Below are positions 23,534 to 60,472 of a stretch of DNA of 64,000 nt, one piece after another. Made by a program: the position numbers and the translations under genes. Location: the NCBI GenBank assembly GCA_963800055.1, contig CAWCZP010000003.1, positions 218,824-282,823 of the forward strand, given 5' to 3'. Source of the stretch: an uncultured Acidobacteriota bacterium (GTDB taxonomy: Bacteria > Acidobacteriota > Blastocatellia > Pyrinomonadales > Pyrinomonadaceae). How positions within the stretch are numbered: the stretch's first letter is position 1; the number at the start of each line of letters is the position of its first letter. The notes beneath the pieces were generated by a model that did no database searches, was not told the DNA's origin, and saw only the letters and a program-made list of their open reading frames with translations.

Positions 23534-24652
23534 CTAATGGAGTAGACCTACGAGCTCTCGCTTGATTGCGCCGTCAGGGCAAGTCTCAAGAAACTCTTTC
23601 AACCAAGTCTTCTTTTCTTCGTCATCGGCAGCGGCAATCGCGCGCAATTCGTCGCGGTTGTACGTCAGAAAATCGTCTTCAAGCATCGAATCGAAGTGGT
23701 AAATCGTTTCAAACTCATGAGGCGCTATCTCCGACTCTCCGGCAAGGACAAATGACGAACCATCCCTGCGAGAACCGCCCAAAACAACCGTCCTCTGCTT
23801 TGTGAACAAATGAGTGTCGTATCCGAAATACTCAACTGTGTAAGACACTTTTAATTTCGCCCGTCCGTTTTCGACCTCACATGACACAGGTCGTCCGATA
23901 AAGCCTTTTGCAGGAAACGCGGCGAACCCGGCCTGACGCACTTCACCTAAGTACGATCCAACACGTCTCACTCCGCGGTCTGAAACCTCGTACACCGTGT
24001 CCAGCCACCCGCCAAGTCCAGTGCCCGTTGCGCCGGTACTCTGCAGAATTAACCACGCTCGATCATTGCTCACGAGCACCACTGGATCCGACGGTCGATA
24101 TTTAGTCCAAACGTTGACCGTTCCCAACAGCCTTGGATTCCGATCGCGAGAATCGTTGAAAATGAGGTAGCGGTACATTTGTACGAATTGCTGCTTGATC
24201 TGCAACACAACCTCACGGTCCACATCATCGTCGAGATTGAATTCAAAGATATTCGCCTCGCAGCCACCGCAGGCAGCGCTATAGTTGATCGGAACTGATA
24301 TCTCGGGATCATCCGTAACTCCAAGTCGTTGCCATAATCTATACAGGTTCGCGTTCGGATGCGCGTCAATAAAGGACTCAATTTCGCGTGGTGTGATTCC
24401 CAAAGTTTCCGGATATACGTGATACGTCGGCTCAGGCACAGGCGTGAGCGTCGGTGAGGGCGCTGGGACTTCTGCTTGAGCCACTGCCGCGCGCTGTCGC
24501 AGCAGGTAACGATGAACAGTTCCGACCGACACCCCAGCAACAAAAGCAACGCAGGCAACCGTCACTCGCAGTAATTTGGATCGCACGCCCGCATTATTGA
24601 GCGACCCTAAAACAGCAGCAATGTGGCTCACCACATTCAGTGTTCGGGTCAA
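23534..24652 (-). CDS. hypothetical membrane-anchored protein
   Basis: 372-aa ORF with one N-terminal TM; no family recognised. Confidence 0.45.
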   Translation of the reverse strand: MTRTLNVVSHIAAVLGSLNNAGVRSKLLRVTVACVAFVAGVSVGTVHRYLLRQRAAVAQAEVPAPSPTLTPVPEPTYHVYPETLGITPREIESFIDAHPNANLYRLWQRLGVTDDPEISVPINYSAACGGCEANIFEFNLDDDVDREVVLQIKQQFVQMYRYLIFNDSRDRNPRLLGTVNVWTKYRPSDPVVLVSNDRAWLILQSTGATGTGLGGWLDTVYEVSDRGVRRVGSYLGEVRQAGFAAFPAKGFIGRPVSCEVENGRAKLKVSYTVEYFGYDTHLFTKQRTVVLGGSRRDGSSFVLAGESEIAPHEFETIYHFDSMLEDDFLTYNRDELRAIAAADDEEKKTWLKEFLETCPDGAIKRELVGLLH

Positions 24653-24703
24653 CCCGGTTCGGACAGGGTTTTCTCTGCGGAGAAAACTCGAATCAAGAAA
24701 GTC

Positions 24704-24732
24704 TTGACAGGCATTTTGGCGCCGCCTATATT
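24704..24732 (+). promoter_or_regulatory. sigma70-type promoter of the Phe-biosynthesis operon
   Basis: TTGACA (24704-24709), 17-nt spacer, TATATT (24727-24732), 10 nt upstream of the leader ORF. Confidence 0.55.
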
Positions 24733-24742
24733 AATCGAGGTC

Positions 24743-24847
24743 ATGAGTAGCACTCGTACTTTTTTCTCTTTCGCCTTTACTTACCGCTTCTTCTTTTTTG
24801 AGGAGAGCGGACCGGCGAAGTTTGAAAACGACGTGCTGAAGACCTAA
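24743..24847 (+). CDS. Phe-rich leader peptide (pheL-like attenuator peptide)
   Basis: MSSTRTFFSFAFTYRFFFFEESGPAKFENDVLKT: 8 Phe plus 1 Tyr within 13 residues, including FFFF. It lies between the promoter and a terminator, ahead of chorismate mutase. Confidence 0.7.
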   Translation: MSSTRTFFSFAFTYRFFFFEESGPAKFENDVLKT

Positions 24848-24872
24848 GAAAAAGCACAACACCTTCAACGAG

Positions 24873-24909
24873 CCAGCCGCGATCCTAAAAGTCGTGGCTG
24901 GTTTTTTTT
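24873..24909 (+). terminator. intrinsic terminator (attenuator) after the leader peptide
   Basis: CCAGCCGCGA (24873-24882), 9-nt loop, TCGTGGCTGG (24892-24901; 10 bp with one G-U), then T8 (24902-24909). Confidence 0.75.
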
Positions 24910-24928
24910 ACGCCTGGAGCTGGGAATC

Positions 24929-25198
24929 ATGGATATAGATCATTGGCGCAAAGAGATTGACGACATTGATTCGGAACTGCTTCGCCTCCTCAACATGAGA
25001 GCGCGCCTCGCAATGAAAGTCGGCGCACTGAAGCAGGCCGCGCACCTCCCATTCTGCGACCCTGACCGCGAACGCAGCGTCCTTCAACGCCTGCAGGAGA
25101 TCAACGACGGCCCGCTTGATGAGCGCGCGGTCGGCAAGCTTTTTCGCAGAATTATCTGTGAATCGCGACGCGTTGAGTCGGGAATTGCCTCGAGATGA
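24929..25198 (+). CDS. chorismate mutase (AroQ class)
   Basis: 89 aa; ..WRKEIDDIDSELLRLLNMRARLAMKVGALK.., ..DPDRERSVLQRL.. Confidence 0.85.
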   Translation: MDIDHWRKEIDDIDSELLRLLNMRARLAMKVGALKQAAHLPFCDPDRERSVLQRLQEINDGPLDERAVGKLFRRIICESRRVESGIASR

Positions 25199-25818
25199 CC
25201 ATGTTAATTCGCAAACCAAGAGTCGCATTTCAAGGCGAGCGCGGCGCCTTCAGCGAAGAGGCCGCGATGAAGTTGCTCGGCGACGAAATCGAACTCGTGC
25301 CGCGAAAGACCTTCAGCGATCTTTTCAACAGTCTCGATAACCACCTCGCCGACTACGTGCTCGCGCCGGTTGAAAACAGTATCGCCGGCGTCGTTCAGCC
25401 TTCCGTCGACCTGATGCGCTCGAGCACGCTCGCAGTAGTCGATGAAGTTGAAATAAAGATCGAGCAACACCTGATCGGCTGCCCGGGTGCAAGCTTCGAA
25501 ACGATCGAAACAGTGCAGTCGCACCCGGTTGCGCTTGCGCAGTGCACTCGCTTTTTTGCGACGAACCCCCGGCTCAAATCGCTGATCGCCGACGACACCG
25601 CAGGCAGCGTCGCGGAAATAGTTCGGCTCAACGACACGAAACGCGCAGCCATCGCCGGACAACGCGCAGCGGATATCTACGGCGCATCAATTATCCGCAG
25701 AAGCATCCAGGACCAGACAGAAAACTACACCCGATTCGTTTTGCTGTCAGCTAACAGAACCGCGCGCGGTACCGCCGCGTCAACCTACCCTGCTTTAGTA
25801 AAGGAACACACATCATGA
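25195..25818 (+). CDS. pheA: prephenate dehydratase, catalytic PDT domain only (no ACT domain)
   Basis: ..[45 protein letters not shown].. The ORF ends 24 aa after TRFVLL. ATGA overlaps on both sides. Confidence 0.8.
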
Positions 25819-26831
25819 TCGTCAACATGTTAAGCACAGCAACCCCCGACGAAATCAACCACGTCATCGACCGCATTAAGGAATGTGGTTTTCAAGCACA
25901 CGTTGTCAGGGGGGAAGAACGCACCATCATCGGCGCGATCGGGAGCAGCGGGCGCCGTTCGGAAATCGAAGCGCTTCGCGCCGCACCGGGAGTTGCGGAA
26001 GTCATCCAGATTTCTCATCCGTTTAAGCTCGTCAGCCGGCAACTGAGGCAAGCGCGCACCGTCGTCGACGTGTGCGGAACAAAGATCGGCGACGGCCAGC
26101 TCGTCGTGATCGCTGGTCCATGCTCGGTCGAGTCGGAACAGCAATTGATGGAAACGGCCCATGCGGTGAAGGCTTCGGGCGCCCGTATGCTTCGCGGTGG
26201 CGCTTACAAACCCCGGACGTCGCCGTACGACTTTCAGGGACTCGGCGTCGAAGCACTACGTTTTCTTCAACGAGCCAGTAGAGAGACTGGATTGCCAATC
26301 GTGACCGAAGTCATGAGTGAAGCAGACGTGGAGATCGTTGAGGAGTATGCAGACATGATGCAGGTCGGCGCGCGCAATATGCAAAACTTTTCGTTGTTGC
26401 GAAAACTCGCGCACGTTTCAAAGCCGGTGCTTTTGAAACGTGGCCCATCGGCGACGGTCAAGGAATGGTTGCTGGCTGCGGAGTATTTGCTTTCGGGCGG
26501 GAATGCCAATGTGGTTTTGTGTGAGCGCGGAATCAAGACGTTTGAGACCGCGACGCGCAATACGCTCGATCTCTCAGCAGTCGCCCTCGTGAAAGAGTTA
26601 TCACACTTGCCCGTGCTTGCCGATCCTTCCCACGGGACGGGCTTGCGAAGCTTGATTACTCCGATGTCGAAAGCGGCGGCGGCGGTTGGTGCTGACGGTT
26701 TGTTGATCGAGGTCCATCCGTGTCCGGAGCGGGCGCTTTCAGACGGACCGCAGTCGCTGGATCTGAAAGCGTTTCAGGAGTTGATGGAGAATCTTGGGCA
26801 GGCGCCCGCGCGCGAAGCAAAAGCGGCATAA
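25815..26831 (+). CDS. 3-deoxy-7-phosphoheptulonate (DAHP) synthase, type I-beta with N-terminal ferredoxin-like regulatory domain
   Basis: Closely parallels the Thermotoga-type enzyme as I remember it: MIVNM..(FL domain)..[55 protein letters not shown].. Confidence 0.9.
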
Positions 26832-26877: not shown

Positions 26878-28358
26878 TTAATTCCCTTCGGGGCTGCGCA
26901 TCTTCCGCGGCAGTTCCTTCTCGGTCTTTATCACCGAGCCGTCGATCGCGTTGACCCAAACGTGCGTCGAGACGCTGGCATTTGTTTCATCCGCGATTAT
27001 CACGTGATAGAACACTGATCCATCCTTCCCAAGCTTTCCAGGCTCTTCCCAGCCTTTTGCACCCAGGCTGCATACCAAAACTTTTCCGGGCTGCTGGCTC
27101 AGTGCCACCACAATCGCCTGGTCCATGTTTATCCTCGCCAGCCGAACTAACGCAGCGTGCATTACCGCGCGCATCTCGACTTCCATTTCCCTCTTGCGCT
27201 CCATCTCGGCCTGAACAGCAGGATCGAATGGCTTTCTTTTCCTTCGAGCTCACCTGCCGCACGAAGCTTCATTTCTACAAGCTTCTCTCGATCCTTCCGC
27301 TCCTGCTCTTGCGGAGACGGATCCTGTGTATCAAAGCGGACGGCAAACGCGGCCGCTGCGACACACGGCACAAGCAGCAACAGCGCGACAGCAAGCAGCA
27401 GATGTTTATTCCCACGTGTATTGAAGTTCGATTTTCTTAACAACGACATGATACGGGCCTCCAGAATGTCAGCATCGGCGATGCCTACGGTTGTAGTTAC
27501 GGAGAGACGACGCAGAGGTGGCGCTGAGCTGGCGAGTTGTACGAGCGAGCGCGCATAAACTTCCGCGTTCAGAATTCGCTCCGCAACAAGCTCATCACAG
27601 CAGAGTTCGCGAGTTTGCCTGACGCGACGTCTTAATAACGCCGCCGCGGGATGAAATGAGATGGGGACGAACAACAATTCGTAGATCAGATTGAGCACGT
27701 AATCCCGCCGCGCAACGTGAATGAACTCATGGCCGATTGCAGAGGTAAGTAGCTCGATGTTGCCTTCGCGCAGCAGTTGTTCGGGCAAAATAATGACCGG
27801 CTCGGAAAGGCCGATCGTCACGGGCACTGGCACTGTTTCTGAACGTAGTACCTTCACCCAACCAGACGGCGCGCCTGCCTGGTGTTCGCACTTACGGATG
27901 ATTTCCGTGACTCGCTGATCAGGCTCGAGCTCAACGGCCCCACGCCTGATCGTTCCGGTGGTTTTCCAGGCTTGGACCAGTTTGAAAAGGCGATAAAGAA
28001 GAAACGCGCAGAACAGCGCTACTAGCAGAGACGCGAGTCGCTGATTCAATCGAAACGTTGATGGCACTGGAAATCTTGTACGCGCCAGTGCAATTGGAAA
28101 TGGTTGCAACTCTTCGCTGGCCAGGATCGCGTATGTTGTCGAAGCGGAGGAAGAAACTGTTTCGCCGAGCGTGCGTAGTGACGTGATTGTGGGAACCAGA
28201 AACGCGAGACAGAGAGCGGTGGTCCAGAGCCAGTGTCGATAGCGCGCGGGGGAGTTTCGCAGCAGCCATGCGCCGAATGCGGCGAGTGCAGCAATGAGGG
28301 TAATCTGCCAAAGAGAGTTTAGAAGAAACGTCAGTACGAGTTGGCTAATTGTTCTCAT
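26878..28358 (-). CDS. BlaR1/MecR1-type M56 peptidase signal transducer with C-terminal PepSY-like domain; one frameshift near 27235
   Basis: ..AIGHEFIHVARRDY.. (HExxH) after 4 TM segments. The ORF 26878-27204 (..INMDQAIVVALSQQPGKVL..VFYHVIIADE..VWVNAIDGSVI..) joins in frame through ..ELEGKE/KKPFDPAVQAEMERK.. if one base of an A-rich run is removed. Confidence 0.7.
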
Positions 28359-28737
28359 CGGCGTCCTCCTTGACCTGTTCGACGAGCTTTTGCAGGCGCG
28401 CGAGTTTTTCAGGGGTGAGGTGCTTGGTTTCGACCAGGCTCATGACCAGACTTTCCGCCGAACCGCCAAAAAGTCGATCGACCACATCTTTGACGTGCTT
28501 GCCCACGACTTGTTTACGACTGACCGCGGGCTTATAGAAGTAGGCGCGGTTCTTTAGAGTGCGTTTTGCTTTGCCCTTGCGCTCGAGGATGTTCAGCATG
28601 GTCTGAACGGTTGTGTACGCCAGATCGCGTTTGAGTTTTTGCTGCACGGTCTGGACGTTTGCGGGTCCGGTTTCCCATAGGACGTGCATGATCTCGAGTT
28701 CGAGCGGGGTCAGGTTTTCGGTCTTGGGCCGCGCCAT
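28345..28737 (-). CDS. BlaI/MecI/CopY family transcriptional repressor
   Basis: ..LTPLELEIMHVLWETGPANVQTVQQKL..LAYTTVQTMLNILERKG.. winged helix; overlaps the blaR1-like start. Confidence 0.9.
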   Translation of the reverse strand: MARPKTENLTPLELEIMHVLWETGPANVQTVQQKLKRDLAYTTVQTMLNILERKGKAKRTLKNRAYFYKPAVSRKQVVGKHVKDVVDRLFGGSAESLVMSLVETKHLTPEKLARLQKLVEQVKEDADENN

Positions 28738-35265: not shown

Positions 35266-35350
<85 letters not shown>

Positions 35351-47679: not shown

Positions 47680-47752
<73 letters not shown>

Positions 47753-58548: not shown

Positions 58549-60472
58549 GTCGCGGTAGAGATGTCGATTGCTCGACACCCCCCGCACAGACCCGTGCGAG
58601 CGCTGCTCACGCACACGGTTCCTACCTTGGATATTTGGCGTCGAAGCGCGCAGTGGGATAGGGGTGGAGAACACAAATCTCAGGAAGCAAATGACCCAGA
58701 CGCTCCATGAAGCGTTCCCAGTTCCAGCGACTACGCTGACTGCGCCGTCGAAGCTGGTCCAGCCACATACGTAGCACCTCCTGCCGAAACGCTTCCAGCC
58801 GCGCCTGATTATCCGGAATCGCATGGTATTGGAAATACCCTCGCACCACGGACTGTAGCCATTTCACCGTCTTCACGTGCGACTCATGCCGACGCACTTT
58901 CAGTTGCGCTCTAATTTCCTTTAGCTTGGCTGTCATGCGCTGGCGCTTAGTCTGACGCCGGATGGTGAAGCGGCCCGCGTTACGTGTTGTCCCACAGATG
59001 TGGGTGAAACCTAAAAAGTCAAAGGTCTCTGGCTTTCCTAGCCCAAGTCTTTTCCGTCGTTCAGTAGCATAGCGTCCGAATTCAATCAGACGTGTCTTCT
59101 CCGGGTGCAGCTCCAGACCGAATTTGGCCAGCCGTTCCCGTAACTGCTCCAGAAACTGCTCAGCTTCTTCCCGATGCTGGAACCCTAGCACGGCGTCGTC
59201 GGCATAGCGACAGACGATTACATCGCCCTTCGCCTTCCGCCTGCGCCACTGGTGCACCCAGAGATCGAGAACGTGATGTAGATAGAGGTTAGCGAGGACT
59301 GGTGAGATCACCGATCCTTGCGGAGTCCCTTCCACCGTCTCGAACCACCGGCCTTTGTTCCATCACGCCTGCTTTCAACCATTTCTGGATGAGGCGGATG
59401 ATTCGTTTGTCTCCTACCCGATGCTCGACGAACTTATTCATCCATTCATGTCGAACTTTATCGAAAAATGAGCGGATGTCGAGATCTAAAATCCAGTTCA
59501 CTTTCTTGCGTGTGATTCCCACCCATAAAGCGTCCAGCGCATCGTGTTGACTGCGCCTTGGCCGGAACCCGTATGAGAAACCCAGAAAGTCCTCTTCCCA
59601 TATCTGATTGAGAACTCTACCCACCGCGTGCTGAACGACTTTGTCTTCCAGCGCCGCGATCCCCAATGGTCGTTGTCGGCCATCAGGTTTGGGTATCCAG
59701 GTTCTTAGTGACGGTAGCGCTCGATAAGCTCCACGATGAAGGCGACCATGAAGGTTTGCTATTCGCTCTTCCAACCCGCTTCCATATTTTTGCCACGTAA
59801 CGCCGTCTACTCCGGGAGCAGCTCCACGCTTGAGTGCGAAGAAACTGTCACGAAGCAGATCCACTGTCACGTGATGCAGCAGAGCCGTGAACCGTAACTT
59901 CTTATCCTTCCTTGCTGCTTCGCGCACATGGGTCAACTTGCTTGACCAGCTTCCCCGTTTCTGCGTCCGGTACTGGTTGAGTTGATCCATGTTCTCCTTG
60001 GTCAGCGGCCTTCCCTCCACTGCCTCCGCTGGCGGTTCCCCGCTTTTGTTCGGCTGCTTCGCAGGTACTATGCCGCTGTACGACTCCCCGTCACCGTGCA
60101 TGTGGGTCTTATCGCTTATCGCTTTCTCCCACCGGACCACTACCGTTCGTATCAGTGGTCGACAACGGGGTCTCTCGGTTCTCGCGCGTGGAGTTTCTAT
60201 GCATGCATGGGGTCTCTGACTCCGCAGGGCTGCGACGCACTCGCGCTAGCGCACGCCGCCTTGTTGCCTTCCAGCCTTTGTGACGCCGTCGGCTTCTCCC
60301 CTGATGATTGGGCCATTTCGGAGCTCTATACCCAGCCTACATATACCTCTGTCGAACGCTCGATTGCGGTCTTGCGGCCGCCCCCGCATGACTCGAGGCC
60401 AGGATGGTTCGCTACTCCTTATCCTGTATGACTCTTTCATTCACGACTCCACGCCGGTTTATCCCGACGCAC
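58549..60472 (-). mobile_element. bacterial group II intron (about 1.92 kb) with RT/maturase ORF and no endonuclease domain
   Basis: The 5' end on the minus strand is GTGCG (60472-60468). A domain V-like GAACCGTGTGCG..GCACGGGTC follows directly after the ORF stop, then a 3-nt linker. Next is a 34-nt GCAA-tetraloop hairpin with a bulged A 7 nt before a terminal ..GAC (domain VI-like), ending near 58549. Confidence 0.8.
58622..60140 (-). CDS. group II intron reverse transcriptase/maturase; one frameshift in the run at 59354-59356
   Basis: ..IPKPDGRQRPLGIAALEDKVVQ.., ..YGFRPRRSQHDAL.., ..LDLDIRSFFD.., ..EGTPQGSVISPVLANLYL.., ..VCRYADDAVLGF.. (YADD), and the X/maturase region. It ends without an HNH domain. 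Confidence 0.9.

Follow-up and report, generated by a model that had tools for sequence, protein, structure and literature searches.

A probable leader-peptide attenuator of an aromatic amino acid operon conserved in Acidobacteriota

Leader-peptide attenuation is a textbook mechanism, and most of its documented cases come from Proteobacteria, Actinobacteria and some Firmicutes. Here we analyse an element of this type from Acidobacteriota, a dominant but poorly studied soil phylum. The element lies in a stretch of 64,000 nucleotides (nt) of contig CAWCZP010000003.1, referred to throughout as the window, from an uncultured bacterium of the family Pyrinomonadaceae. It consists of a Phe-rich open reading frame (ORF) and an intrinsic terminator, placed directly upstream of an operon encoding chorismate mutase, prephenate dehydratase and DAHP synthase. 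We consider it highly likely that this leader is a ribosome-mediated (leader-peptide) transcription attenuator of the aromatic amino acid operon.

Among described systems, the E. coli pheL-pheA leader (Rfam Phe_leader) offers a close parallel, with a Phe-rich leader ORF, helices of the 1:2, 2:3 and 3:4 type and a terminator in front of the chorismate mutase/prephenate dehydratase gene. The pheL leader sequence has Ala and Thr codons among its Phe codons, and the same interspersion is seen in the acidobacterial leader. The two differ in several respects. Covariance-model searches with cmscan, read up to an E value of 10, revealed no detectable relatedness in sequence or structure; pheL has 15 codons, whereas the acidobacterial leader has 34, with Tyr (in relatives also Trp) besides Phe; the acidobacterial operon encodes chorismate mutase and prephenate dehydratase in two genes, and DAHP synthase is co-regulated with them; and pheL is preceded by a Shine-Dalgarno sequence, whereas the leader from the phylum Acidobacteriota is probably near-leaderless. 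Reports of pheL come mainly from Gammaproteobacteria, and Bacteroides and Desulfobacterium have supplied a few candidates (PMC3082878). A second parallel is the aroR-aroF operon of Corynebacterium glutamicum, where, according to the summary of Neshat et al. 2014 given in PMC11802643, a leader containing Phe-Tyr-Phe causes ribosome stalling under Phe limitation upstream of a DAHP synthase operon. On that description, as distinct from a sequence comparison, both systems place an aromatic-codon leader peptide before DAHP synthase. They belong to different phyla, and the acidobacterial operon adds chorismate mutase and prephenate dehydratase and keeps the heptapeptide FAFTYRF across two classes. 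With trpL, hisL, leuL and thrL the leader shares the location of the regulatory codons in region 1, a shared region 2, and a stop codon placed so that a terminating ribosome prevents the antiterminator; it differs from them in amino acid specificity, in a region 3 that mimics region 1, and in an extra outer helix between the ends of the ORF.

The leader matches no catalogued family in the searches made. A scan of the whole window at the Rfam gathering thresholds gave no match at the leader, so that T-boxes, riboswitches and known leader families were rejected as candidates, and cmscan of positions 24600-25000 with E values up to 10 returned three chance-level hits, none of them to Phe_leader or another amino acid leader family. 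An exact look-up in a collection of 15 billion proteins showed that the 34-residue peptide has not been called as a gene there. None of the papers covered by a literature search contained FAFTYRF, nor did any of them tie leader peptides specifically to Acidobacteria. The leader is thus apparently a new, uncatalogued family of a very well-known kind of regulator: a clear and widely conserved amino acid attenuator in Acidobacteriota, the mechanism of which would not surprise a specialist.

The leader and its alternative RNA structures

The elements of the leader, all on the forward strand, are as follows.

24704..24732, + strand: sigma-70-like promoter; -35 box TTGACA at 24704-24709, 17-nt spacer, -10 box TATATT at 24727-24732; 11 of 12 consensus matches
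24743..24847, + strand: leader ORF MSSTRTFFSFAFTYRFFFFEESGPAKFENDVLKT, from ATG at 24743 to TAA at 24845-24847; 34 codons plus TAA
24769..24795, + strand: region 1, UUUCGCC-UUUACUUA-CCGCUUCUUCUU; codons F10 A11 F12 T13 Y14 R15 F16 F17 F18; from minimum free energy (MFE) folds
24800..24820, + strand: region 2, GAGGAGAGCGG-ACC-GGCGAAG; partner of region 1 or, with its 3' part, of region 3
24833..24857, + strand: apical stem-loop of the antiterminator; GUGCU at 24833-24837 pairs with AGCAC at 24853-24857, with UAA 24845-24847 in the loop
24864..24880, + strand: region 3, the 3' arm of the antiterminator, UUCAAC-GA-GCC-A-GCCGC; covers 8 of the 12 bases of the terminator 5' arm
24872..24909, + strand: intrinsic terminator; 12-bp stem 24872-24883/24891-24902, 7-nt loop, U8 at 24902-24909

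A preliminary description of this locus had recognized its main parts by inspection, and most of them stood. The TTGACA-17-TATATT promoter lies where it had been placed and has the 11 consensus matches listed above. The 34 codons and the FFFF run of the ORF were also confirmed; the stated total of eight Phe holds only for the part of the peptide that was quoted, since the whole ORF encodes nine Phe and one Tyr, with eight of the Phe, FFFF included, among the first 19 residues. The terminator is strong and ends in U8 as described, and its stem, given earlier as 10 bp, has 12 bp in the ViennaRNA fold (ΔG -21.2 kcal/mol); a hairpin scan lists it as 24870-24904, with 14 pairs including the ends.

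The whole leader folds with a z score of -5.1 against dinucleotide shuffles, none of 200 of which folded as well. Because of this value, and because the arrangement is conserved in dozens of related genomes, the layout of the leader is beyond chance. Alternative folding yielded mutually exclusive 1:2, 2:3 and terminator helices. Region 1, which contains the FAFTYRF core, is the 5' arm of the anti-antiterminator, and its hairpin with region 2 has a ΔG of -21.1 kcal/mol (z = -3.1). The earlier proposal that the Phe-codon segment pairs with a segment just downstream is borne out by the MFE fold, where CCGCU.CUUCUU is paired with GAGGAGAGCGG. In this terminated structure an outer helix (helix 3) additionally brings the 5' and 3' ends of the ORF together.

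The antiterminator, which the preliminary description had been unable to locate, is formed by the 3' part of region 2 (24807-24820) and the bases that follow it, paired with 24864-24880. When positions 24800-24884 were folded without region 1 and without the still unmade 3' arm of the terminator (region 4), the MFE structure was a single extended 2:3 hairpin (ΔG -22.9 kcal/mol, z = -2.57). Its basal helix joins GCGG.C.GGC (24807-24816) to GCC.G.CCGC (24872-24880), and its middle helix joins GUU.GAA (24820-24826) to UUCAAC (24864-24869), so that the hairpin occupies 8 of the 12 bases of the terminator 5' arm. Region 3 resembles region 1, both containing CUUC..GCC..CCGC, and for this reason it can replace region 1 opposite the 3' part of region 2.

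The leader has the general features of leader attenuators, namely an ORF with codons for the end product, a terminator before the first gene, and mutually exclusive helices, and all computationally testable hallmarks of the pheL/pheA-like ribosome-stalling layout first suggested for it are present and conserved. From the computed ORF, the three alternative helices and their conservation we infer a switch in which the ORF is translated from a near-leaderless start and ribosome stalling responds to amino acid supply. RNA polymerase would start at the 24704-24732 promoter, and translation of the 34-codon leader would set in very close to the 5' end of the RNA. When charged Phe-tRNA and Tyr-tRNA are abundant, the ribosome would reach the UAA at 24845 and, because this codon lies in the apical loop of the antiterminator, the terminating ribosome would hold that structure open; region 2 would then re-pair with region 1, the terminator stem 24872-24902 with its U8 would form, and transcription would stop before the chorismate mutase gene. 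With scarce charged Phe-tRNA or Tyr-tRNA, the ribosome would stall on F-A-F-T-Y-R-F(-F-F-F), which is region 1 itself, and thereby free region 2. The 3' part of region 2 would pair with region 3 (GCGG.C.GGC/GCC.G.CCGC), and this helix would be extended by GUU.GAA/UUCAAC and capped by GUGCU/AGCAC. By occupying 8 of the 12 bases of the terminator 5' arm, the antiterminator would allow the polymerase to read into the chorismate mutase, prephenate dehydratase and DAHP synthase genes. Footprint arithmetic suggests that a ribosome stalled with its A site at any position from F12 to F18 exposes region 2 fully, and that a stall at F19 begins to cover GCGG.

Conservation of the leader in relatives

Homologues of the prephenate dehydratase place the source organism in the Pyrinomonadaceae, and an alignment of them (A1) served to retrieve 80 genome loci, which belong to Blastocatellia, to Chloracidobacterium and to Candidatus Acidiferrales, an order of Terriglobia. 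In most of these loci chorismate mutase is followed by prephenate dehydratase and then DAHP synthase, and nearly all have, 5' of the chorismate mutase gene, a small ORF encoding FAFTYRF (UUC GCN UUU ACN UAC CGC UUC) followed by an intrinsic terminator; all leaders examined have this terminator ahead of the first gene. We built a covariance model, R1, that spans the core to the terminator and models the antiterminator. In 62 of 81 sources R1 found exactly one match per locus, always on the operon strand and directly upstream of the operon. Counting the operons with enough upstream sequence, 62 of the 65 that begin with chorismate mutase carry the leader; this figure includes L066, the leader of which was detected by motif only and lies outside the R1 matches. 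The carriers include a cultured strain, Pyrinomonas methylaliphatogenes K22 (L020). The Phe-rich ORF, for which a comparison with relatives had been proposed in the preliminary description, is therefore conserved upstream of the operon, and, judged by sequence, the leader family is conserved across at least two classes of Acidobacteriota, Blastocatellia and Terriglobia. In three Blastocatellia loci (L021, L027 and L054) the chorismate mutase and prephenate dehydratase genes are kept with no match to the leader model upstream, and these loci appear to lack the leader. The DAHP synthase match in the same three loci is a distant paralogue (~35-41% identity).

A scan of metagenomes for the 21-nt core identified at least 120 contigs. 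All the metagenome matches listed precede genes of the aromatic pathway, save for 11 contigs that are too short to judge and three others. In the first of these (L086) the core falls within a long ORF that resembles a membrane or channel protein and is not followed by an aromatic gene; this is probably a chance match. In the second (L095) the ORF is a fragment that lacks an in-frame ATG, and again no aromatic gene follows; the third (L161) has a complete leader, and its downstream gene was not matched by the chorismate mutase query. With the alignment and the covariance model, hundreds of soil genomes and metagenome contigs could be annotated.

Two contigs labelled Candidatus Binatus and Candidatus Baltobacteraceae (L046 and L053) carry an acidobacterial-type leader and operon. 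Their proteins are as close to the proteins of the window as are those of the Acidiferrales loci, and the occurrence of the leader under non-acidobacterial labels suggests mis-binning or horizontal transfer. L033 (Verrucomicrobiia) gave neither a chorismate mutase match nor a leader match, and the sequence of L060 (Dormiibacterota) ends 68 bases upstream of its chorismate mutase gene.

The leader frame is open in all 52 distinct genome leaders, and 51 of them have an in-frame ATG. FAFTYRF is identical in 54 of the 62 genome hits and in at least 120 metagenome contigs, from two classes of Acidobacteriota; its Thr position is replaced by N, I, A or M in some relatives. The only variable bases of the 21-nt core are the wobble positions of Ala (entropy 0.85 bits) and Thr (1.73 bits). 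The two-fold degenerate third positions are nearly fixed (UUC, UUU, UAC, CGC), which fits an extra RNA-pairing constraint on the same bases. The codons flanking the core are aromatic in 60-70% of leaders at positions -3 to -1, in 97% at +6 and in 87% at +8, and UUU, UUC, UAU, UAC and UGG interchange at these positions, indicating that aromatic identity, rather than sequence, is kept. The preliminary description had taken the leader to respond to Phe codons. Phe codons are indeed prominent; they are not alone, since the codons that would be sensed are those for Phe and Tyr, with Trp added in some relatives.

The Trp codons accompany a second architecture, in which the leader stands directly before a lone DAHP synthase gene (L117, for example at 2560-2760, L126, L142, L156, L163 and ~15 other metagenome loci). 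These leaders have the promoter TTGACA-17-TATTCT and typically read MHSRYYSWFAFTYRFPWSGSGQGRIARESR. Among the metagenome matches listed, Trp codons occur in 20 of 20 distinct leaders before lone DAHP synthase (mean 1.95) and in 15% of 72 before chorismate mutase/prephenate dehydratase (mean 0.18), and Phe codons number 3.5 and 5.2 per leader, respectively, a contrast of which the significance is inflated by shared ancestry. Neither chorismate mutase nor prephenate dehydratase lies on the route to Trp, whereas all three aromatic amino acids depend on DAHP synthase, so the Trp-codon difference has the direction that sensing of tRNA charging predicts. The family thus offers a natural experiment, with one scaffold that carries Phe/Tyr codons before chorismate mutase/prephenate dehydratase and Phe/Tyr/Trp codons before lone DAHP synthase.

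The position of the promoter bears on how the leader would be translated. TTGACA-17/18-TAnnnT was found in 54 distinct related leaders, and in 44 of them the -10 box ends 8-11 nt before the ATG, as it does in both the Pyrinomonadaceae clade and the separate clade with DAHP synthase only; in the window the distance is 10 nt. Transcription normally starts 6-8 nt after the -10 box. From these distances the leader ORF is probably leaderless or nearly so, with a 5' untranslated region of 0-4 nt. The bases between the -10 box and the ATG are not conserved, the GAGG of the window being replaced by CGCGG, CTCGG, CCCGC and others in close relatives. GAGG was considered as a Shine-Dalgarno sequence and rejected: it is not conserved, just 2 nt separate it from the ATG and, given the short distance of 10 nt between the -10 box and the ATG, it probably falls at or before the transcription start. 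The leader ORFs of actinobacterial attenuators are transcribed leaderless (PMC8079986), and the promoter-ATG spacing of the acidobacterial leaders resembles this arrangement. The conserved spacing predicts leaderless translation initiation in Acidobacteriota, and together with the breadth of the family, its invariant heptapeptide core and its gene-matched codons, this likely leaderless start makes the leader a good experimental model for a poorly studied phylum.

For the terminated state, which comprises the outer helix, the 1:2 helix and the terminator, conservation of pairing was counted on A2, a structure-blind MAFFT alignment. In this state 76.6% of cells were paired versus 71.7% in shuffles, none of 500 of which were as high, and slid partners gave at most 49%; the covariation score was 0.216 versus 0.158 (0 of 500 shuffles). 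Helices 5-7, which comprise the 1:2 pairing over the regulatory codons, are 85-97% paired across the 52 leaders. RNAalifold on the full-length alignment A2 returned only four pairs, between CCGC of region 1 and GCGG of region 4; a single consensus fails here because structures compete and the variable parts are misaligned.

When region 1 was masked and region 4 withheld, the MFE structure was a single extended 2:3 hairpin that takes the terminator 5' arm in 50 of 50 leaders (mean z = -2.45, with 35 of the 50 below -2). The middle and apical helices of this hairpin are CGAGAC/GUUUCG and GCGG/CCGC in Acidiferrales, and GAAA/UUUC and GCGUC/GACGC in Chloracidobacterium-like loci; the stop codon lies within the apical loop in each of the three sequence clades. 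The basal helix shows compensatory differences (CUGGC/GCCAG in L005, UGGC/GCCG in L001, GCGGUCGA/UCGGCCGC in L067), reads GCGGCCAG/CUGGCCGC in the clade with DAHP synthase only, and is 85% paired both in 61 genome leaders and in the 88 distinct metagenome leaders listed. In the closest clade (alignment A4), 89% of antiterminator cells are paired, versus at most 45% when the partners are slid. One global antiterminator consensus over the 62 genome leaders was tried and set aside, since pairing was conserved only in its basal helix and covariation was not significant; it fits poorly because the middle and apical helices differ in register and sequence among clades.

Evidence against attenuation and competing explanations

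A number of results weigh against the attenuator, the case for which is a computational one. With region 4 available the terminator state is the more stable (-32.7 versus -22.9 kcal/mol), so that the antiterminator must win kinetically, as in classical attenuators. Stalling at F7 or F8 would probably leave CCGCUUCUUC/GAGGAGAGCGG intact and not relieve termination. No Shine-Dalgarno sequence is conserved among the leaders, and the model requires leaderless or near-leaderless initiation, as we have proposed for Acidobacteria. The complementarity of regions 2 and 3 is unexceptional against the GC-rich background, with a median of 9% of 26-nt windows binding as well, and in the MFE structure shuffled upstream halves occupy nearly as many bases of the GC-rich terminator arm as the real ones do (7.7 versus 8.2). 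Covariation of the antiterminator was not above that of shuffles when the 62 genome hits were aligned to R1, and there was none in the closest clade (alignment A4), where nothing varies. The 88 distinct metagenome leaders, none of which was used in building R1, gave 70.2% of antiterminator cells paired versus 67.0% in shuffles (slid partners at most 42%), 95 versus 49 both-side changes and a covariation score of 0.128 versus 0.094, each with 0 of 500 shuffles as high, which amounts to moderate support because the alignment was fitted to the model structure and the sequences are related.

The explanation that survives best beside tRNA-charging attenuation keeps the same switch and replaces the cause of the stalling, the nascent FAFTYRF being an arrest sequence that senses free Phe or Tyr, in the manner of TnaC, which senses Trp, or having a role in trans. 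It would account for the identity of the heptapeptide in most genome hits and in so many metagenome contigs from two classes, and for the Thr codon, which keeps 'AC' with a free wobble base in an unpaired internal loop and which is therefore explained neither by RNA pairing nor by regulatory codons. The other six of the seven core codons, however, are already explained, F, F, Y and F as regulatory codons and GCC and CGC by their pairing with region 2, and the Thr position itself varies in relatives (N, I, A, M). The flanking F, Y and W codons swap freely, and Trp tracks lone DAHP synthase, as sensing of tRNA charging would lead one to expect; no known arrest motif was recognized in the peptide. 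We regard it as unlikely that the nascent chain arrests the ribosome on free Phe or Tyr, or acts in trans like the rhizobial peTrpL, and a shade less likely still that such stalling is what works the switch. If true, arrest or trans action by FAFTYRF would provide a second, metabolite-sensing input to the attenuator.

Alternatively, a ligand, as in riboswitches, or an RNA-binding protein, in the manner of TRAP or PyrR, could switch the leader as a structured RNA in which the ORF is incidental. The core nucleotides are very highly conserved, the two-fold degenerate third positions included, and the other two frames are often open across the core (47 and 30 of 52 leaders), as such an RNA might have it. 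An incidental ORF, however, leaves without explanation the in-frame ATG at a conserved spacing from the promoter in 51 of 52 leaders, the restriction of the variable core bases to four-fold degenerate wobble positions, the flanks that conserve aromatic identity through U/A/G swaps of the second base, and the stop codon that always falls in the antiterminator loop. There is no Rfam riboswitch or T-box match, and the operon encodes no binding protein. We find this explanation very improbable.

Hardly credible is a constitutive or partial terminator acting as an insulator, or an ORF for a small hydrophobic protein, in either case with no amino-acid-dependent switching: the greater stability of the terminator at equilibrium and the computational nature of the switching case would agree with it, but the upstream gene (23534-24652) is on the opposite strand, leaving no other transcript for the terminator to end, a terminator that separates a strong conserved promoter from its sole operon, conserved exclusive helices and pathway-matched codons would be purposeless without switching, and the peptide is not called as a gene in the protein collection.

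The operon and neighbouring features

The attenuator would control three genes, which begin 19 nt past the U-tract with the chorismate mutase ATG at 24929.

24929..25198, + strand: chorismate mutase, AroQ type, 89 amino acids (aa), first regulated gene; Pfam CM_2, E = 1e-24
25195..25818, + strand: prephenate dehydratase, 207 aa; Pfam PDT, E = 9e-54, residues 10-187
25815..26831, + strand: DAHP synthase, 338 aa, with an N-terminal ferredoxin-like regulatory domain; Pfam DAHP_synth_1, DAHP_snth_FXD

The aroQ-pheA-DAHPS order and the ATGA overlaps were present as had been described, the overlaps coupling chorismate mutase to prephenate dehydratase at 25195-25198 and prephenate dehydratase to DAHP synthase at 25815-25818. 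The prephenate dehydratase of the window is the catalytic PDT domain alone, without a C-terminal ACT (Phe-binding) domain, and its close relatives are also ~200 aa long; Terriglobia relatives have ~300 extra bases between the PDT match and DAHP synthase, which is room for an ACT domain. Given the loss of the ACT domain from prephenate dehydratase in Pyrinomonadaceae, attenuation may there replace allosteric feedback by Phe on this enzyme.

The divergent gene upstream of the leader is a 372-aa ORF (23534-24652, - strand) without a match in Pfam. It begins ~50 nt from the leader promoter, with which it may have a regulatory region in common. Overlapping genes (27162-28737, - strand) for a BlaI-like repressor (Penicillinase_R, 130 aa) and a BlaR1-like M56 peptidase sensor (398 aa) converge on the end of the aromatic operon. 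Elsewhere in the window, Rfam identified group II intron domains D1-D4 at 60210-60435 on the - strand (RF02005, 143.8 bits, E = 5e-41) and two tRNA genes on the + strand, at 35266-35347 (59.9 bits) and 47680-47752 (75.3 bits).

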